A DNA stretch of 64,000 nucleotides. Origin: an uncultured Actinomycetes bacterium. Its GTDB lineage: Bacteria; Actinomycetota; Thermoleophilia; Gaiellales; JAICJC01. This document shows, piece by piece, positions 10,148 to 59,130 of the stretch. The notes under the pieces were generated by a model. The model saw only the letters and a list, made by a program, of their open reading frames with translations, did not search any database and was not told where the DNA came from. The stretch spans positions 96,226 through 160,225 of the forward strand of contig CAVPTL010000006.1 of NCBI GenBank assembly GCA_963708725.1, in the 5' to 3' direction. The number at the start of each line of letters is the position of its first letter. The stretch's first letter is position 1. The position numbers were made by a program, and so were the translations under genes.

Positions 10148-10178
10148 GTGAATAACGGTGCCAGGCACCGTTATTCAC
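10148..10178. repeat. REP-like palindromic element, 31-nt subfamily (centre A)
   Basis: GTGAATAACGGTGCCAGGCACCGTTATTCAC is a perfect 15+1+15 palindrome. It lies between the convergent gene ends at 10141 and 10175. Confidence 0.9.
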
Positions 10179-11614
10179 AGACCGGTGAGCGCGGTTATGC
10201 GACCGCTCTCCACAGCCTGCTGGAGCGCGTGGTAGTCACGTTCGTTCTGGTCGGCGTAGGCCTCGGAGAACTCGGCGATCGCCTGGTCGAACACGTCGCC
10301 CGTGCCGAGGTATGACGCGATTGCGATCCGGTCGCCCGAGCGGGCATGCGCTCGTGCCAGAGTCCACCCACACAGCTCGGCGTACATCGCCAGGCCGTCG
10401 ACCGCGAGCGTATCGACCTCGATCGAGCCCTTCCAGTCCTTGAGCTGGCGGCCGTAGAAGTCGCGATGCTGGCCGTCGAGATTGCTCTGGGCATGCAACC
10501 ACCCGAGAAAGATGTCGCTGCTGGCCTGGATGAGATGCTGGCCGGCGACCACCCGCTGGCTGTGGCATGAGTACTCGCTCGGCTGGAGGTACTCCTCCAG
10601 AACCGAAGCCTGTGCTTCCTTGAACTGCAAGAACAGCGGATCGTCACCGTCCTTGCCCATCAGCAGCACGATCCACGCGCGCGTGCCGACGCTGCCCACC
10701 CCGACCACCTTGAAGGCGATGTCCACGAACCGAAACTGCTCGAGCAAGAGCCGGCGGTCGCTTTGCAGCGAATCCCGATACCCGCGGATGATCTGCCGCA
10801 GCTGGGCCCATGCGGCCTCGCCGGGCTCTCCGTGGAGGATGTCGCGGGCCGGTTGGATCAGCGGTGGGGCGCTGATGATGCGGAGCTTCCCGTCCACCGT
10901 CTCGGTCAGCCGGGAGAACTCGTGCAGGCTGTCTCGCGTGCGGGTCTTTGCGATGTTTCGTTCGAGCAGCCGCACGCGCTTTGCGTCGAGCTGGGATCGC
11001 AACGCGTCGAAGGTCGTATCGACCTCCTGGCGGGCGTACCACACGGCCAGATTCGTCATGGTGGCGAACTCGCGCATCGCTCTGCGATAGCTCGCGGCCG
11101 TCCGGCGCACCGCGGTCGTGCGCTGCTTGAGAGTGAGGCCGTTTTCCCGCCCGGAGACCGCCACACTCGCAGCCAGCCGCTTGACGTCCCACTCCCAGGG
11201 GCCGGGGAGCGTCTCGTCGAAGTCGTTGGCGCCGAACACCAAGCGCCGGTCGGTCGATGCGAACATGCCAAAGTTCGAAAGGTGTGCATCGCCGCATAGC
11301 TGGGCGTTGAGTCCGGAGCTGGGCGTGGCGGCAAGATCGCAGGCCATGATCCTGGCCGCGCCGCGGTAGAAGGCGAATGGCGAGTTGAGCATCCGGCCGT
11401 AGCGAATCGGCACCAGCTCGGGCACGCGTGTGGCTGCCTGCTCCTCGAGCAGCGTCACGGGATCCGGGCGATCGGCCGCCGGGGCAAACTCACCGTGGCG
11501 TGAACGCGGCACCCGCTGGCGGGCGAGCTTGCCGTGACGGAGTCGCTCGTCGACCGTCGAGTGGTGCACGGTCGTCCCGAACTTGAGGTGGCCCTCGCCC
11601 GGCACGTCGCTCAT
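10175..11614 (-). CDS. DUF2252-domain protein
   Basis: 479 aa. ..RYGRMLNSPFAFYRGAA.., ..CGDAHLSNFG.. and ..NDFDETLPGPWEWDVKRLAAS.. are characteristic DUF2252 motifs. Its ATG overlaps the stop of the upstream methyltransferase (ATGA at 11611-11614). Confidence 0.8.
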   Translation of the reverse strand: MSDVPGEGHLKFGTTVHHSTVDERLRHGKLARQRVPRSRHGEFAPAADRPDPVTLLEEQAATRVPELVPIRYGRMLNSPFAFYRGAARIMACDLAATPSSGLNAQLCGDAHLSNFGMFASTDRRLVFGANDFDETLPGPWEWDVKRLAASVAVSGRENGLTLKQRTTAVRRTAASYRRAMREFATMTNLAVWYARQEVDTTFDALRSQLDAKRVRLLERNIAKTRTRDSLHEFSRLTETVDGKLRIISAPPLIQPARDILHGEPGEAAWAQLRQIIRGYRDSLQSDRRLLLEQFRFVDIAFKVVGVGSVGTRAWIVLLMGKDGDDPLFLQFKEAQASVLEEYLQPSEYSCHSQRVVAGQHLIQASSDIFLGWLHAQSNLDGQHRDFYGRQLKDWKGSIEVDTLAVDGLAMYAELCGWTLARAHARSGDRIAIASYLGTGDVFDQAIAEFSEAYADQNERDYHALQQAVESGRITALTGL

Positions 11615-17917: not shown

Positions 17918-18715
17918 ATGGATCTGGCCGGAGTCCGCGCCCGTTACGACCGTTCACTCATCCGCGAGATCGCCGATGAGCTGATCAGGATCGAGATTGT
18001 CGACCGCGCGCTGGCGCTCGCATCGAAGCTGTTTGTCGCGGTGATCCCGCTGAGCATCATTCTGAGCGCAACCGTCCCGGGTTCTGAATCGTTCGGCGAG
18101 AACCTGGTGTCGCGATTCAGTCTGACCGGAGCCGGGGCGGCGGCCACCCGTTCGCTGTTCGCCACCCGCGGGACGGTGCGCGGTGCGGTCAGCATCATTG
18201 GGCTCGTGATCCTGTTCTACTCGTTGTTCAGCTTCACCCGCGGGCTGCAGCGGGTGTACACCGACATCTGGCGACTCGTCCCTCAGAAGTTCGAGGCGGT
18301 CTTGCGCCGTGCTACCTGGATCGTCGGTTTCGTGATCTACAGCTCGGTGCTCACGCCGATCCAGGACTATGACAAGAACCACCACGTCCCCTATCTGTAC
18401 GCCGGGGCGGCACTCGTGCTGGGGTCGGTGTTTTGGATCTGGACGCCGTACATCCTGCTGGGGCGGCGGGTTCCGTGGAGGCGGCTCCTGCCCACCGGGG
18501 TGATCACCGCGGCGGGGATCGCGCTGTATACGATCGGCTCGTCGCTCTATCTGCCGACGATCTTCACCCACAACGCCGAGCGGTACGGCACCATCGGGAT
18601 CGCCTTCGGCCTGGTCACCTGGCTGTTCGCCTACGCCGGCGTGGCGATCGCCTGCGCCGTGGTGGCGCATAGCTGGGATATCCACCACAACCGCCACCTC
18701 TACCCAGATGAATGA
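17918..18715 (+). CDS. YihY/BrkB-family membrane protein
   Basis: 265 aa, polytopic, with ..FYSLFSFTRGLQRVYTDIW.. typical of the YihY/virulence factor BrkB family. Confidence 0.6.
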   Translation: MDLAGVRARYDRSLIREIADELIRIEIVDRALALASKLFVAVIPLSIILSATVPGSESFGENLVSRFSLTGAGAAATRSLFATRGTVRGAVSIIGLVILFYSLFSFTRGLQRVYTDIWRLVPQKFEAVLRRATWIVGFVIYSSVLTPIQDYDKNHHVPYLYAGAALVLGSVFWIWTPYILLGRRVPWRRLLPTGVITAAGIALYTIGSSLYLPTIFTHNAERYGTIGIAFGLVTWLFAYAGVAIACAVVAHSWDIHHNRHLYPDE

Positions 18716-18893
18716 CCCATCTCCCCGCCGGCTGCTCTGTTGCGGCTGGCCCGCGGGTGGTGTGGCGGCGTCCCACGCGACGTGCGGTGCTCAACGTGCC
18801 TTCTAGGCACGCCTGCGCTCCGCTCGTCGCTCGATCCTTGCCACACCACCCGCGTTCTGCGCCTCACAGACGAGCAGCCGGCGGGGAGATGGG
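18716..18893. repeat. 178-nt long imperfect palindrome (nested inverted repeats) adjacent to a REP copy
   Basis: Outer arms CCCATCTCCCCGCCGGCTGCTC (18716-18737) and GAGCAGCCGGCGGGGAGATGGG (18872-18893) are a perfect 22-bp pair. Inner arms: CGCGGGTGGTGTGGC (18751-18765) pairs perfectly, 15 bp, with GCCACACCACCCGCG (18840-18854). The centre is GTGCC-TTCTA-GGCAC (18796-18810). Confidence 0.8.
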
Positions 18894-18895
18894 TC

Positions 18896-18928
18896 GTGAA
18901 TAAATGGTGCCAGGCACCATTTATTCAC
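18896..18928. repeat. REP-like palindromic element, 33-nt subfamily (centre A), 3' flank of RAYT pseudogene
   Basis: GTGAATAAATGGTGCCAGGCACCATTTATTCAC is a perfect 16+1+16 palindrome. It overlaps the last 8 nt of the RAYT ORF. Confidence 0.9.
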
Positions 18929-19596
18929 GGAGGCGGCGGACGACTGTTGATTGACTGACTCCGAGCTCTGCCGCGATCTCGTGCTGGGTGTAACCGTGTG
19001 CGATAGCGAGCCGAAGTTTGTTGCTGCGCACGAGATCGGCCAGCGGCGGGCGCTCGGGAAGGTCTCTGCCCTCGGCCACGAATTCGCGGTAGCGGTCGCT
19101 GGATCCGTCGAAATACTCAAGCGCCGAGTCGCGGTCAAGCGCCGGGTGTGCCGGGCCAAGCCCCGCGAGCGCCGCGTGGGCAGACCACGGCCAGCGATCG
19201 TGGTCTGCCACGAGTCCCGCCCGCCACGGGTTGAGGGCGATGTAGCGAAACGTCTGGGTGAGATGCTCGTCGTACTCGATCACCTTGGCGTAATAGCGGT
19301 CGCCGAAGAGGTGGCCGGCGCGGTCGTGCAACGCGTTGAACCGATGCGAGTGCGTCGTCCCGATCGCATGCATCCCGAGTGCCAGATTCCTGGCCCGCGA
19401 CGCACGCAGCATGTGGATGTGGTTGCGTGAGCAGGCAGTACGAGAGCAGCCGCCAATTAGCAGCTGCCCGGCGTGACCCATGAGGCGAGAAACGACCGCC
19501 GGTCATGGTCATCGACGAACGACGGGGATGCCGTCGTTCCCGCGCAGGGTGACGTGGTGCAGGGACCGGGTTCCTGACGTCGCGCGGCCGAGGCAT
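18921..19596 (-). pseudogene. REP-associated tyrosine transposase (RAYT; IS200-like Y1/HUH transposase), disrupted by frameshifts and in-frame stops
   Basis: ORF 18921..19481 carries NHIHML (HUH) and GHLFGDRYYAKVIEYDEHLTQTFRYIALNPWRAGLV. The upstream motifs MPRPRDVRNP, SLHHVTLRGN, FVDDHDRRSFL and LLSYCLL are present but split over all three frames. Two in-frame TGA codons lie at 19503-05 and 19509-11. Confidence 0.75.
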
Positions 19597-19665
19597 GGCA
19601 CCACAATAGGTGCCCGCATCGAAGAAGTCCCCGCAAATGTCAACAAACTGCACCGAGTCACACCC

Positions 19666-19697
19666 ATGAAGAAATGGAGCCTGGCACATCTATTCAT
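19666..19697. repeat. Degenerate REP-like element (33-nt subfamily, centre T), 5' flank of RAYT pseudogene
   Basis: ATGAAGAAATGGAGCCTGGCACATCTATTCAT differs from the 33-nt consensus GTGAATAAATGGTGCCTGGCACCATTTATTCAC by about six substitutions and one deletion. It overlaps the stop of the APH-like gene. Confidence 0.6.
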
Positions 19698-20628
19698 GCA
19701 GGAGGGAGTCGATCAGGGTGCGGGTGAGGGGGCGTTCGACGAACTCGGATACTCGGTCCACGGTGTGGTCGCGTTCCGCATCCGAGAGCGTGGGGTCGAG
19801 CCAGTCGGCGCAGGAGATCTCGAGGATGTGCCCCAGCTGGGCAATCGTCATTGAGAAGCTGCCGCGGCCGGAGATGCGGCCGCTGCCGCCAGCGTCGGAG
19901 TAGCTGCGAACAAGCGCCCGAGCGCGATCGGCGTCGCCGGTTGCGAACTCGAACAGCGCGTTTGCCAGCTCGTGCGATGGGTCGGCCGCTCCGCAGTTGT
20001 CCCAGTCGATCACACACAGCCCGCCGTCGGCCGTGAGTCGCAGATTGTCGGCCCACAGGTCGCGATGGCAGGTGCGAAGCGCGGCCGCCGGCTCGATCCA
20101 TGCCTCCAGCGCCACCAACTCGTCGCGCATTGCCGCCAACTCCGCTGCAAACGGAGCTCCACCAGCGGTCAGGTCTGCCACCAGCTCGTCCCAGCGAGCC
20201 GCTCCGACCGGCTCTGTGTACCACGGATCCTCGCCTCGGCTGCCTTCGAACGCCACGCAGTGGAGCTTCGCCAAAAGCGCCCCGACCGCGGCCGGATCGA
20301 GCCCCACGTCGGGCTCGTTCATCTCGACCCACTCGTGCACTCTCACCTGGGTGTCGCCGACCGCCGCGATCACATCACCCGCGGCCGTTCGCACCGCCCT
20401 TGGGGTGGGCACGCCCGCCAGCCGGGCCGCTTCCTGGAAGTCGGTATCCTCACGCACCTCGTCCTCGGTCTGAGGTTCGAACGGTTCTCGCACGGCCCAC
20501 GATCCGCGTGAGGATTCGAGTCGCCAGATCTGGCCCTGCTCGCCGCGGGCAACGGGACCCTCGAACTGCTGCGGGTCACCGAGCCCAAAAGCGCGCGCGA
20601 TCTCGGCGGCGGCGTGAGGTTCCAGCAT
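19690..20628 (-). CDS. Aminoglycoside phosphotransferase (APH)/protein-kinase-like family protein
   Basis: ..CHRDLWADNLRLTADGGLCVIDWDNCGAADPSHELA.. is the Brenner/HxDxxxxN plus DxD catalytic loop of APH-type kinases. Confidence 0.8.
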   Translation of the reverse strand: MLEPHAAAEIARAFGLGDPQQFEGPVARGEQGQIWRLESSRGSWAVREPFEPQTEDEVREDTDFQEAARLAGVPTPRAVRTAAGDVIAAVGDTQVRVHEWVEMNEPDVGLDPAAVGALLAKLHCVAFEGSRGEDPWYTEPVGAARWDELVADLTAGGAPFAAELAAMRDELVALEAWIEPAAALRTCHRDLWADNLRLTADGGLCVIDWDNCGAADPSHELANALFEFATGDADRARALVRSYSDAGGSGRISGRGSFSMTIAQLGHILEISCADWLDPTLSDAERDHTVDRVSEFVERPLTRTLIDSLLHE

Positions 20629-36719: not shown

Positions 36720-37559
36720 ATGGAGAGCCCTGCATGGGAGTGGGACGAGACGCTGTTTGCCGGAAGCGCCGCCTACTACGCTCGCGGTCGCCTTCCCTAC
36801 CCGCCGACGATGGTGGATGCAGCCCGCGACGCGCTGGGACTCGACGGGTCCGGGCGGCTGTTGGACGTCGGCTGTGGCCCGGGGCTGGTGGGCCTGCTGC
36901 TGGCCGGGTTGTTCGCCGAGGTGGTGGGGGTGGACGCTGACCCCGCGATGGTCGCCGAAGCCGAGCACCAAGCCGCGATCCGCGGGCTCGCGCACACCCG
37001 TTGGCTCAATCTCCGGGCCGAGGCGCTGCCGGCGGGCCTCGGGACGTTTCGGGTTGCGAGCTTTGGCCGGTCGTTTCACTGGATGGATCGTCCCCGCGTG
37101 GCGGCGTTGGTGGGCGAGATGCTGGAGCCTGGTGGCGCATGGCTGCATGTGAGCGCCCCGATCGCGCGCGAGGCCGACCCCTCCGACAAGTTGCCGGCGC
37201 CGGCACCGCCGCGCGAGGCGATCTCCGAGCTCGTTCGGGGCTACCTCGGCCCCGACCGGCGGGCGGGCCAGGGAGTGCTTCCCGGCGGAACGCGGTCTGG
37301 GGAGGAGGGCGTGATGGTGAAGGCCGGTTTCAAGGGGCCCAAACGCGTGCCGGCGGGAGGTGGCGAGGTTTTCGACCGCTCCGAAGACGACATCGTGGCA
37401 CTCGTGTTTTCGCTCTCCTCGTCGGCGCCCCACCTGTTTGGCGAGCGTCTCGGTGAGTTCGAAGCCGACCTTCGCAAGCTCCTGCGCCTGACCTCACCGT
37501 CCGGCCGCTTCAGCGAACGCCAACGCCCCATCGAACTGGTCATCTGGACCCGTGAATAA
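36720..37559 (+). CDS. Class I SAM-dependent methyltransferase
   Basis: ..RLLDVGCGPGLVGLLLAGLFAEVVGVDADPAMV.. is SAM motif I. Start set at ATG 36720 (MESPAWEW). The last two codons and the TAA stop lie inside a REP copy. Confidence 0.75.
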   Translation: MESPAWEWDETLFAGSAAYYARGRLPYPPTMVDAARDALGLDGSGRLLDVGCGPGLVGLLLAGLFAEVVGVDADPAMVAEAEHQAAIRGLAHTRWLNLRAEALPAGLGTFRVASFGRSFHWMDRPRVAALVGEMLEPGGAWLHVSAPIAREADPSDKLPAPAPPREAISELVRGYLGPDRRAGQGVLPGGTRSGEEGVMVKAGFKGPKRVPAGGGEVFDRSEDDIVALVFSLSSSAPHLFGERLGEFEADLRKLLRLTSPSGRFSERQRPIELVIWTRE

Positions 37560-37584
37560 ATGGTGCCTGGCACCATTTATTCAG
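37552..37584. repeat. REP-like palindromic element, 33-nt subfamily (centre T)
   Basis: GTGAATAAATGGTGCCTGGCACCATTTATTCAG. The last base is G instead of C. It lies between the convergent gene ends at 37559 and 37660. Confidence 0.9.
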
Positions 37585-56858: not shown

Positions 56859-57293
56859 ATGTTGACCAATCGTTCGGCACCTCCCGCGACTGTGACGCCG
56901 GTGCTCGTCTACCCCGACGTGCGCGCCGCGGTGGCGTGGCTCGAGGCGGCCTTCGGGTTCGAGGAGCGAGTGCGCATCGGCGACGCGCACCGCGCACAGC
57001 TACGGATCAATCCCGACGCGGCGCTGGTCGTCGCCGACGTACACGGCGCCCAGGTCGCGCCGACCGCGGGCGTCGTGACTCACATTCTCAAACTGCGCGT
57101 CGCCGATGTTGATGCCGCGGTCGCCCGCGCAACCGGTCATGGGGCGCGGATCGTGAGCGAGCTCGAGACGCACGTGTACGGCGAGCGCTCGTGCATGGTC
57201 GAGGATGTCGGCGGTCACCGGTGGGAGTTGAGTCAGACCGTGCGCGACGTCGAACCCGAGGAGTGGGGCGGTGTCAGCACCGGCCAGTGGTGA
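56859..57293 (+). CDS. VOC-family (glyoxalase/bleomycin-resistance) protein
   Basis: 144 aa. ..VTPVLVYPDVRAAVAWLEAAFGF.. and ..CMVEDVGGHRWELSQ.. are VOC motifs. The TGA stop lies inside a REP copy. Confidence 0.8.
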   Translation: MLTNRSAPPATVTPVLVYPDVRAAVAWLEAAFGFEERVRIGDAHRAQLRINPDAALVVADVHGAQVAPTAGVVTHILKLRVADVDAAVARATGHGARIVSELETHVYGERSCMVEDVGGHRWELSQTVRDVEPEEWGGVSTGQW

Positions 57294-57320
57294 ATAACGG
57301 TGCCAGGCACCGGTATTCAC
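57290..57320. repeat. REP-like palindromic element, 31-nt subfamily (centre A), one arm mismatch
   Basis: GTGAATAACGGTGCCAGGCACCGGTATTCAC (GGT instead of GTT in the right arm). It fills the gap between the convergent gene ends at 57293 and 57322. Confidence 0.9.
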
Positions 57321-59099: not shown

Positions 59100-59130
59100 G
59101 TGAATAACGGTGCCTGGCACCGTTATTCAC
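59100..59130. repeat. REP-like palindromic element, 31-nt subfamily (centre T)
   Basis: GTGAATAACGGTGCCTGGCACCGTTATTCAC is a perfect palindrome. It lies in the divergent intergenic region between the starts at 59072 and 59158. Confidence 0.9.

Follow-up and report, generated by a model that had tools for sequence, protein, structure and literature searches.

What is the long hairpin that separates a membrane protein gene from a convergent transposase gene in this stretch of 64 kb (the window)? The original prediction saw one long imperfect palindrome directly behind the first gene and offered several identities for it: a REPIN-like or MITE-like element, a structured sRNA or terminator, or a recognition structure for the transposase next to it. 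The two genes are:

17918-18715, forward strand: gene for a BrkB/YihY-family membrane protein (Pfam PF03631).
18921-19600, reverse strand: gene for a RAYT, a REP-associated Y1 transposase with a C-terminal HTH (Pfam Y1_Tnp and HTH).

The second gene is convergent with BrkB and lies downstream of the hairpin. It is identified as a RAYT by its product, a Y1 transposase of the REP-associated clade, and by the REPs in inverted orientation on its two sides. The score against the NCBIfam model REP_Tyr_transpos (NF047646) was 73.5 bits, just under the cut-off of 80. PF01797 was matched in intact RAYT alleles, and several homologues carry the JGI name "REP element-mobilizing transposase RayT". The gene is bracketed by two copies of a 35-bp palindrome, (C/G)GTGAATAAATGGTGCC-N-GGCACCATTTATTCAC:

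18895-18929, no strand: REP1, CGTGAATAAATGGTGCC-A-GGCACCATTTATTCACG, the insertion target; its inner arm holds the RAYT stop codon.
19665-19698, no strand: REP2, located upstream of the RAYT, where it overlaps the APH stop codon; degenerate or noisy in the window.

The original prediction of one long imperfect palindrome was borne out. The stretch 18716-18893 forms a single nested hairpin with a DNA fold of -77.9 kcal/mol. Among 200 shuffles that preserve dinucleotides, the mean was -40.7 (sd 3.5), which puts the hairpin at z = -10.7, and none of them was equally stable. Folded as RNA together with its flanks, the hairpin reached z = -12.5 on the forward strand and -14.3 on the reverse strand, and the neighbouring REP formed its own, separate hairpin. 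The outer arms are perfect, as predicted, but 24 bp long (18714-18737 / 18872-18895) and not 22 bp, since they take in the last two bases (GA) of the BrkB stop codon. The inner 15-bp stem also pairs perfectly (18752-18766 / 18840-18854), with its left arm one base off the predicted coordinates. The perfect stems of 24 bp and 15 bp are separated by unrelated internal loops. The parts of the element are:

18714-18896, forward strand: E1, a non-coding foldback element of 183 bp; the segment missing from empty alleles.
18714-18737, forward strand: left TIR GACCCATCTCCCCGCCGGCTGCTC, 24 nt, 100% complementary to the right TIR.
18752-18766, forward strand: inner perfect stem, left arm CGCGGGTGGTGTGGC.
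18796-18810, forward strand: apex GTGCC-TTCTA-GGCAC with the REP core motif, the only non-REP instance in the window.
18840-18854, forward strand: inner perfect stem, right arm GCCACACCACCCGCG.
18872-18895, forward strand: right TIR GAGCAGCCGGCGGGGAGATGGGTC, 24 nt, 100% complementary to the left TIR.

At its right end, E1 has one extra G beyond the 24-bp TIR. The predicted match of the apex to the REP core (GTGCC/GGCAC) also stood. The pattern GTGCC-N(1-7)-GGCAC occurs 7 times in the window, in six REPs and in the hairpin apex. As only ~1.56 occurrences were expected and 0 of 100 shuffles of the window reached this count, the likeness of the apex to the REP core is notable. Apart from REPs and short local palindromes, the window contained no other inverted repeat of this size. 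An 18-nt inverted repeat at 746-763 / 1088-1105 (89% complementary, arms 324 nt apart) may be due to chance.

To see what the locus looks like in other strains, we compared ~12 metagenome assemblies of the same species with an identical BrkB protein; the 265-aa protein is found, identical, on >10 metagenome contigs. Contigs with the locus include ERZ25039457 contig_16455 (2.6 Mb), ERZ25039534 contig_13049 (1.06 Mb) and ERZ25039551 contig_76865. Fetched loci are numbered with an L, and a slash marks a junction. Empty alleles read CAGATGAAT/AAATGGTGCC and filled alleles CAGATGAAT(GACCC…GGGTCG)TGAATAAATGGTGCC. With longer context, this is …CCAGATGAAT/AAATGGTGCCAGGCACC… in the empty alleles (L001, L004, L005, L006 and L045) and …CCAGATGAAT(GACCCATC…GATGGGTCG)TGAATAAATGGTGCC… in the filled ones (window, L002, L003 and L041). 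The difference is 188 bp, namely the 183 bp of E1 (18714-18896) plus a second TGAAT. In the aligned junctions, this pentamer is present once in empty and twice in filled alleles:

18709-18713, forward strand: left 5-bp direct repeat TGAAT (target-site duplication), in the last codons of BrkB (GAA T/GA).
18897-18901, forward strand: right 5-bp direct repeat TGAAT, at the start of the outer arm of REP1.

This is the typical mark of an insertion, and the hairpin is read as an inserted 183-bp element with a 5-bp target duplication. The insertion point lies in the AT-rich outer arm of the REP1 palindrome, between TGAAT and AAATGG. In empty alleles, this outer arm holds the BrkB stop codon and the gene ends with GAT GAA TAA. 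In filled alleles, it ends with GAT GAA TGA, where GA represents the first two bases of E1, and the protein is the same. The window, L002, L003 and L041 share an E1 without a single difference, the independent assemblies coming from at least four samples, and the short-read contig L007 contains the first 46 nt of E1. The presence or absence of the element segregates among strains whose flanks diverge by only 0.2-0.7%. SNP distances do not set the filled strains apart as a clade and fit a single insertion as well as several.

A long hairpin between short direct repeats is an ideal substrate for slippage deletion, and outgroups were checked for this reason. BrkB orthologues were located at 92%, 86% and 76% identity. 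Judging by gene content and by one distant BrkB hit with the label Gaiellales, the host is probably an actinobacterium. In L028 (86%, syntenic, no RAYT), BrkB ends with …CCG GAG GGT GAA TAA-CGGTGCC…, with the stop within a REP arm. No hairpin was present in L028 or in L027 (92%, with a REP cluster). As the BrkB stop of L028 lies in a REP arm without the hairpin, the empty state came first, and the element must have been inserted. An ancestral filled state, with empty alleles arising by hairpin deletion, was therefore rejected as the sole account; later precise losses of the element are also possible.

The spacer between BrkB and APH is a hot spot for REPs in different species. In L027, the closest BrkB outgroup, this spacer (L027:800-1010) consists of a three-REP cluster with no RAYT and also holds a different palindrome, GAGGTTATTCATCT-CA-AGATGAATAACCTC. 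REPs lie on both sides of all four RAYT homologues (86%, 72%, 71% and 59% identity), with the downstream REP overlapping the RAYT stop codon, and none of these homologues has the hairpin. The REP-RAYT-REP unit lies beside GGDEF/thioesterase genes in L024 (86%) and beside a MalK-type ABC transporter in L025 and L026 (71% and 72%), and it is missing from the BrkB-APH spacer of L028. As the neighbourhoods differ, the cassette was either relocated as a unit or gained and lost.

A second copy, E2, was found by BLAST of E1 on the fetched loci. It is inverted and 95.6% identical in L004, and a noisy version is present in L006. E2 sits in the outer arm of REP2 beside the APH gene (site 2), which is the mirror image of site 1. 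In L041, a RAYT remnant is bracketed by E2 and by an E1 that is 100% identical. There are thus four haplotypes: no element (L001, L005 and L045), E1 only (window, L002, L003 and, partial, L007), E2 only (L004 and L006) and both (L041). REP2 is empty in the window and occupied by E2 in L004, L006 and L041. The junction at site 2 reads CATGAATA/GACCCAGC…GAGCTGGGTC/TGGTGCC, compared with CATGAATAAATGGTGCC when empty. Here, there is no target duplication, and two to three target bases are missing; the same junction was seen in three assemblies. The first bases of E2 rebuild the APH stop (CAT GAA TAG). Both copies follow ATGAAT(A) in the same orientation (n = 2).

E2 was always linked to a ~260-nt deletion of the RAYT 5' end. 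This deletion and a mutated REP2 make up a haplotype of the population (L004:11268-11330; L041:4636-4690). At L041:5125-5175, the inner arm of REP1 is partly duplicated in tandem (16 nt, TGAATAAATGGTGCCT twice), which is either a real REP rearrangement or an assembly error.

In the window, the 3' two-thirds of the RAYT gene are clean, and the 5' third (about 19400-19600) contains many single-base indels. The indels in this third and in REP2 are relative to L033, an accurate short-read JGI contig, and to L005. Within 19400-19700 of the window, the stop codon of APH is TAG, which is also the APH stop of the E2 haplotype. Given these indels and this stop, the consensus of the RAYT 5' third and of REP2 is probably a blend of mixed haplotypes, and the apparent RAYT frameshifts in the window may not be real. 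Such consensus noise, with traces of another haplotype so close by, would be the reason to regard E1 itself as an artefact of long-read metagenome assembly. We consider this extremely improbable: E1 is base-for-base identical in the window and in three independent assemblies from different samples (ERZ25039534, ERZ25039546 and ERZ25039551), its first 46 nt occur in a short-read Logan contig, and the junctions are exact.

All substitutions between E1 and E2 fall into the 24-bp terminal arms or the apical loop, and the interior of ~125 nt is identical. The arm changes are T>G with partner A>C, C>T with partner G>A and one unpaired G>A, meaning that two of the arm differences are compensatory pairs. 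In the apical loop, TTCTA is replaced by TAT. The ends of a MITE are expected to be its most conserved part. The observed pattern is possibly the result of gene conversion between the two inverted copies, which are close together, if its tracts seldom extend to the edges, combined with correction of one arm by the other inside the palindrome. Alternatively, selection may have acted on pairing and not on sequence.

This divergence pattern, with an identical interior and diverged ends as conversion tracts between nearby inverted copies would leave them, is also what an origin without any transposon would predict. The palindrome would have been born once by fold-back or template switching on a mini-hairpin resembling the REP core, gene-converted between the two near-identical inverted REPs and lost by slippage between the TGAAT repeats. 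This account accommodates several features of the locus: the REP core at the apex, the missing duplication at site 2 and the restriction to two known sites of one REP-RAYT-REP unit, with ~30 bp of REP homology on one side and the ATGAAT microhomology on the other. The partial REP1 duplication in L041, if real, shows that local rearrangement takes place in this region. It does not accommodate the arms, which are not a decayed perfect palindrome but stems alternating with unrelated loops. Moreover, nothing similar to the element exists in the window, the loci or any searched database as a source, and the junction at site 1 is exactly what transposition with a 5-bp duplication predicts. We regard a locally born palindrome as quite unlikely.

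Further copies and a parent element were searched for at several levels. Exact searches with the 22-mer arm (≤3 mismatches) and whole-element BLAST on the window and all fetched loci returned only the locus itself and site 2. No other copy was present in the rest of the 64-kb window or in ~40 kb more from the same genomes (about 105 kb read). The known copies of this genome occupy two sites, 0.8 kb apart, in ~105 kb of readable sequence. The BLASTN check proposed in the original prediction gave a second copy at site 2 and none elsewhere in the window or in the fetched loci of relatives. An interior 20-mer had 14 matches in 185,579 reference genomes, all of them chance matches in GC-rich DNA of unrelated phyla, and an interior 24-mer had 0 matches in JGI metagenomes. 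A degenerate TIR pattern covering both arm variants produced 4 matches, all coding or chance and with no paired arm. Viral contigs contained no real match to the element, and plasmids (blastn) contained none.

The concatenated six-frame translation had no homologue among 5.8 billion proteins and hence picked up no ORF called across a further copy; the element lacks coding capacity. The window and, searched with the TIR pattern, JGI metagenomes and viral contigs yielded neither an autonomous element nor a transposase with matching ends. Apart from the RAYT, no transposase was called in the 20-kb neighbourhoods. The other REPs were empty: the one at 10163 in 6 strains, the one at 37568 (AAAT type) in 3 strains, five other REPs of the window and three at a paralogous RAYT locus.

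The further REP copies of the window are centred at 10163, 32341, 37568, 57305 and 59115. The REPs of the window belong to two sub-families, an AAAT type (centres 18912, 37568 and ~19681) and an AACG type (10163, 32341, 57305 and 59115). The sub-family GTGAATAAATGGTGCC flanks the RAYT described here, and GTGAATAACGGTGCC flanks a paralogous RAYT (P0006, 59% identical), which lies ~220 kb off on the same 2.6-Mb contig (REPs at L031:9886-9925 and 10690-10730). This suggests that two REP/RAYT pairs co-exist in one genome.

Flanking genes recurrently take their stop codon, in many cases together with the last Glu codon, from the REP arms GTGAATAA / TTATTCAC, and such stops often serve both genes of a convergent pair. 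Examples of gene ends supplied by REPs are GAT GAA TAA (BrkB), CGT GAA TAA (RAYT) and CAT GAA TAA (APH). Mechanical ORFs also end in REP arms at 37559, 59107, 57293, 57317 and 10175. The REPs concerned are located at 18897-18929, 19665-19698, 37553-37583, 59100-59130, 57290-57320 and 10150-10178 in the window, and at L028:3780-3815 and around 6600-6690 of L024-L026 outside it. As the REP motif contains TGA and TAA in two frames per strand, a REP at a gene end stops translation almost immediately.

Another reading is a functional RNA, be it a long bidirectional terminator, an mRNA-stabilising 3' hairpin or an sRNA for the convergent BrkB and RAYT genes. The RNA fold is very stable on both strands, the location is the 3' region of two convergent genes, and the changes in the outer stem are compensatory. 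The structured sRNA or terminator of the original prediction nevertheless found no backing. Rfam 15 gave no relevant covariance-model match up to an E-value of 10, a tRNA/tmRNA scan gave nothing, and no promoter-like or terminator-like site and no T-tract were found in the element. Moreover, the element is missing in several strains with identical BrkB and intact RAYT genes and in all relatives; an intrinsic terminator was rejected on the same grounds, with no terminator-like site and with the hairpin missing beside an identical BrkB gene. Any effect on RNA would be a consequence of the insertion and not its origin. A functional RNA as the explanation of the element is very unlikely.

The REPIN-like identity was dismissed as well. 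The arms of the element (GACCCATCTCC…) are unrelated to the consensus of the RAYT-flanking REP, GTGAATAA(A/C)(T/G)GGTGCC, and only the 5-bp apex core is shared. The copy number also differs: the 64 kb contain at least seven REPs but a single copy of the element, which is not highly repeated. An IS200/IS605-type PATE has no TIRs and has subterminal hairpins, whereas this element has 24-bp perfect inverted ends and is one hairpin as a whole. Three further candidates were rejected. Ancestral terminal repeats of the RAYT cassette do not fit the homologues at 59-86% identity, which have REPs but no such element. By inspection, there was no AT-rich segment able to pair with the TGAATAAAT target, as a solo IS110 bridge-RNA-like module would need, and there were no R/L boxes of an integron attC site.

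A conserved recognition structure for the RAYT, the remaining suggestion of this kind, did not hold up either: the homologues at 86%, 72%, 71% and 59% identity are flanked by REPs without the hairpin, and L005 and L045 have an intact RAYT without the element. A looser link of the element to the RAYT/REP system is possible, as both insertions lie in RAYT-flanking REPs and the apex has the REP core.

One such link would be that the neighbouring RAYT, an HUH/Y1 enzyme acting on single-stranded DNA, moved the element by cleavage 3' of TGAAT at the foot of the REP stem or of the element's own stem. In that case, a unit of 188 nt, GACCC…GGGTCGTGAAT, would move and be placed 3' of a TGAAT target without a true duplication, and its excision would be seamless and regenerate the empty allele. 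Several features speak for this reading. Both insertions hit the two REPs that flank the RAYT, and the other REPs looked at are empty; both copies follow ATGAAT(A) in one orientation; the junctions of E1 are TGAAT^ on both sides; the apex is the REP core, in its only non-REP instance in 64 kb; and the compensatory arm changes keep the hairpin. IS200/IS605 insertion 3' of a penta- or tetranucleotide offers a parallel. In vitro, RAYTs cleave single-stranded REP DNA and catalyse strand transfer on it (PMC8266576).

However, the cuts of characterised RAYTs fall on CT/CA dinucleotides that lie outside the REP stem, with GTAG as the guide (PMC8266576), and the break here would be T^A within the stem. 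E2 lacks TGAAT on its 3' side. With E1 and E2 on opposite strands at a distance of 0.8 kb, the strand bias expected of single-strand transposition is not seen. Wherever E2 occurs, the RAYT beside it has lost part of its 5' end, and the RAYT homologues in relatives have no element. The sample of REPs is also very small, and the shared orientation can be explained by selection for stop codons. On balance, movement by the RAYT is rather unlikely, but it is the main rival of the reading favoured below. The related idea that the element is a hitch-hiker on the REP/RAYT system, with the RAYT cutting and pasting a non-REP hairpin at TGAAT^ after recognising its REP-core apex or the foot of the hairpin, is likewise doubtful, a shade more so. 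If it were true, the four haplotypes would document RAYT-catalysed insertion and seamless excision in vivo from nature for the first time.

The element is inserted, non-coding and foldback, has inverted ends, lies in REP arms and segregates in the population. The MITE-like identity of the original prediction is the one that these observations uphold, with presence and absence among strains, inverted ends of 24 bp, a target duplication of 5 bp at site 1, a lack of coding capacity and a second copy that has diverged. With moderate confidence, we favour a 183-bp non-autonomous foldback element of the MITE type, which a transposase acting in trans would move by cuts staggered by 5 bp and which would be drawn to the REP arm. 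The 5-bp duplication and the inverted ends fit a DDE transposase acting in trans.

Under this MITE-type reading, the transposase supplied in trans would bind the two inverted ends and make 5-bp staggered cuts in the REP arm, and gap repair would give the TGAAT duplication. The REP arm would attract the element because it is among the few AT-rich, structure-prone sites in a genome of ~67% GC. REPs are documented preferred targets of ISs from five families, namely IS3, IS110, IS4, IS256 and IS5 (PMC1525189). As the element starts with GA, insertion after GAA-T would rebuild a stop codon (TGA in BrkB, TAG in APH) and leave the host proteins unchanged, and the insertion would therefore be tolerated. 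Rebuilding of the stop codon may explain the shared orientation of both copies. Several observations speak against the MITE-type reading. Site 2 has no duplication. The ends of E1 and E2 have diverged and the interior is identical, which is the opposite of what is expected for transposase-binding ends. No parent element was found. The known copies are confined to two sites 0.8 kb apart, and the genomes, metagenomes, viral contigs and plasmids searched gave no others. Finally, the REP core at the apex hints at a link to the RAYT.

ERIC/IRU, Correia/NEMIS and RUP are bacterial MITEs that fold into one long hairpin. The element resembles them in its size class (100-250 bp), its TIRs, its lack of coding sequence and the imperfect hairpin formed by the whole element, as well as in its short target duplication (at site 1), its location at gene ends and its presence or absence among strains. 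However, these families have tens to hundreds of dispersed copies, whereas only two copies of this element are known, both in REP arms by one gene. They usually duplicate TA or another short target, in contrast to 5 bp at one site and none at the other here, and no parent IS of this element is known.

Like the REP-targeting ISs (IS1397/ISKpn1/ISPsy8 of IS3, IS621/ISPpu9/ISPpu10/ISPa11 of IS110 and ISRm22 of IS4), the element inserts into REP palindromes, and its removal restores the REP exactly, as is the case for these ISs (PMC1525189). In contrast to the element, which is 183 bp long, non-coding and placed in the AT-rich lower stem, they are autonomous, 1-1.5 kb long and encode a transposase, and several of them insert into the REP loop (PMC1525189).

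With REPINs and REPtrons, the element shares a hairpin of ~100-200 nt beside a REP-flanked RAYT and the core GTGCC/GGCAC at the apex (PMC3116915, PMC8266576). A REPIN consists of two inverted copies of the RAYT-flanking REP and is highly repeated (PMC3116915, PMC8266576); the element, in contrast, has arms unrelated to the REP, interrupts a REP, has a target duplication and is very low-copy. The insertion mode of PATEs and IS608/ISDra2 may be reflected in the position of both copies (n = 2) directly 3' of TGAAT, in one orientation and with a Y1 HUH neighbour. PATEs and IS608/ISDra2 have no TIRs, two subterminal hairpins on one strand, no duplication and a strand bias, whereas this element has 24-bp inverted ends and two copies on opposite strands. 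It is best read as a newly recognised, very low-copy, REP-targeting foldback element that is new within the MITE class.

The locus illustrates how stop codons are supplied to flanking genes, both by the REP arms GTGAATAA and by the first bases (GA) of the element. What has been demonstrated so far for RAYTs as movers of REPs and REPINs is in vitro cleavage and strand transfer (PMC8266576). The hairpin element described here is present or absent in wild populations at precisely those two REPs between which a RAYT lies, and both its filled and its empty junctions are known to the base. The four natural haplotypes and the exclusive tie to these two REPs make an involvement of the RAYT directly testable. 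Should the RAYT cut at TGAAT^, mobility driven by a RAYT would be seen here in a natural setting. Otherwise, this uncultured soil bacterium of high GC content would provide a clear case of a REP-targeting MITE family that is new.
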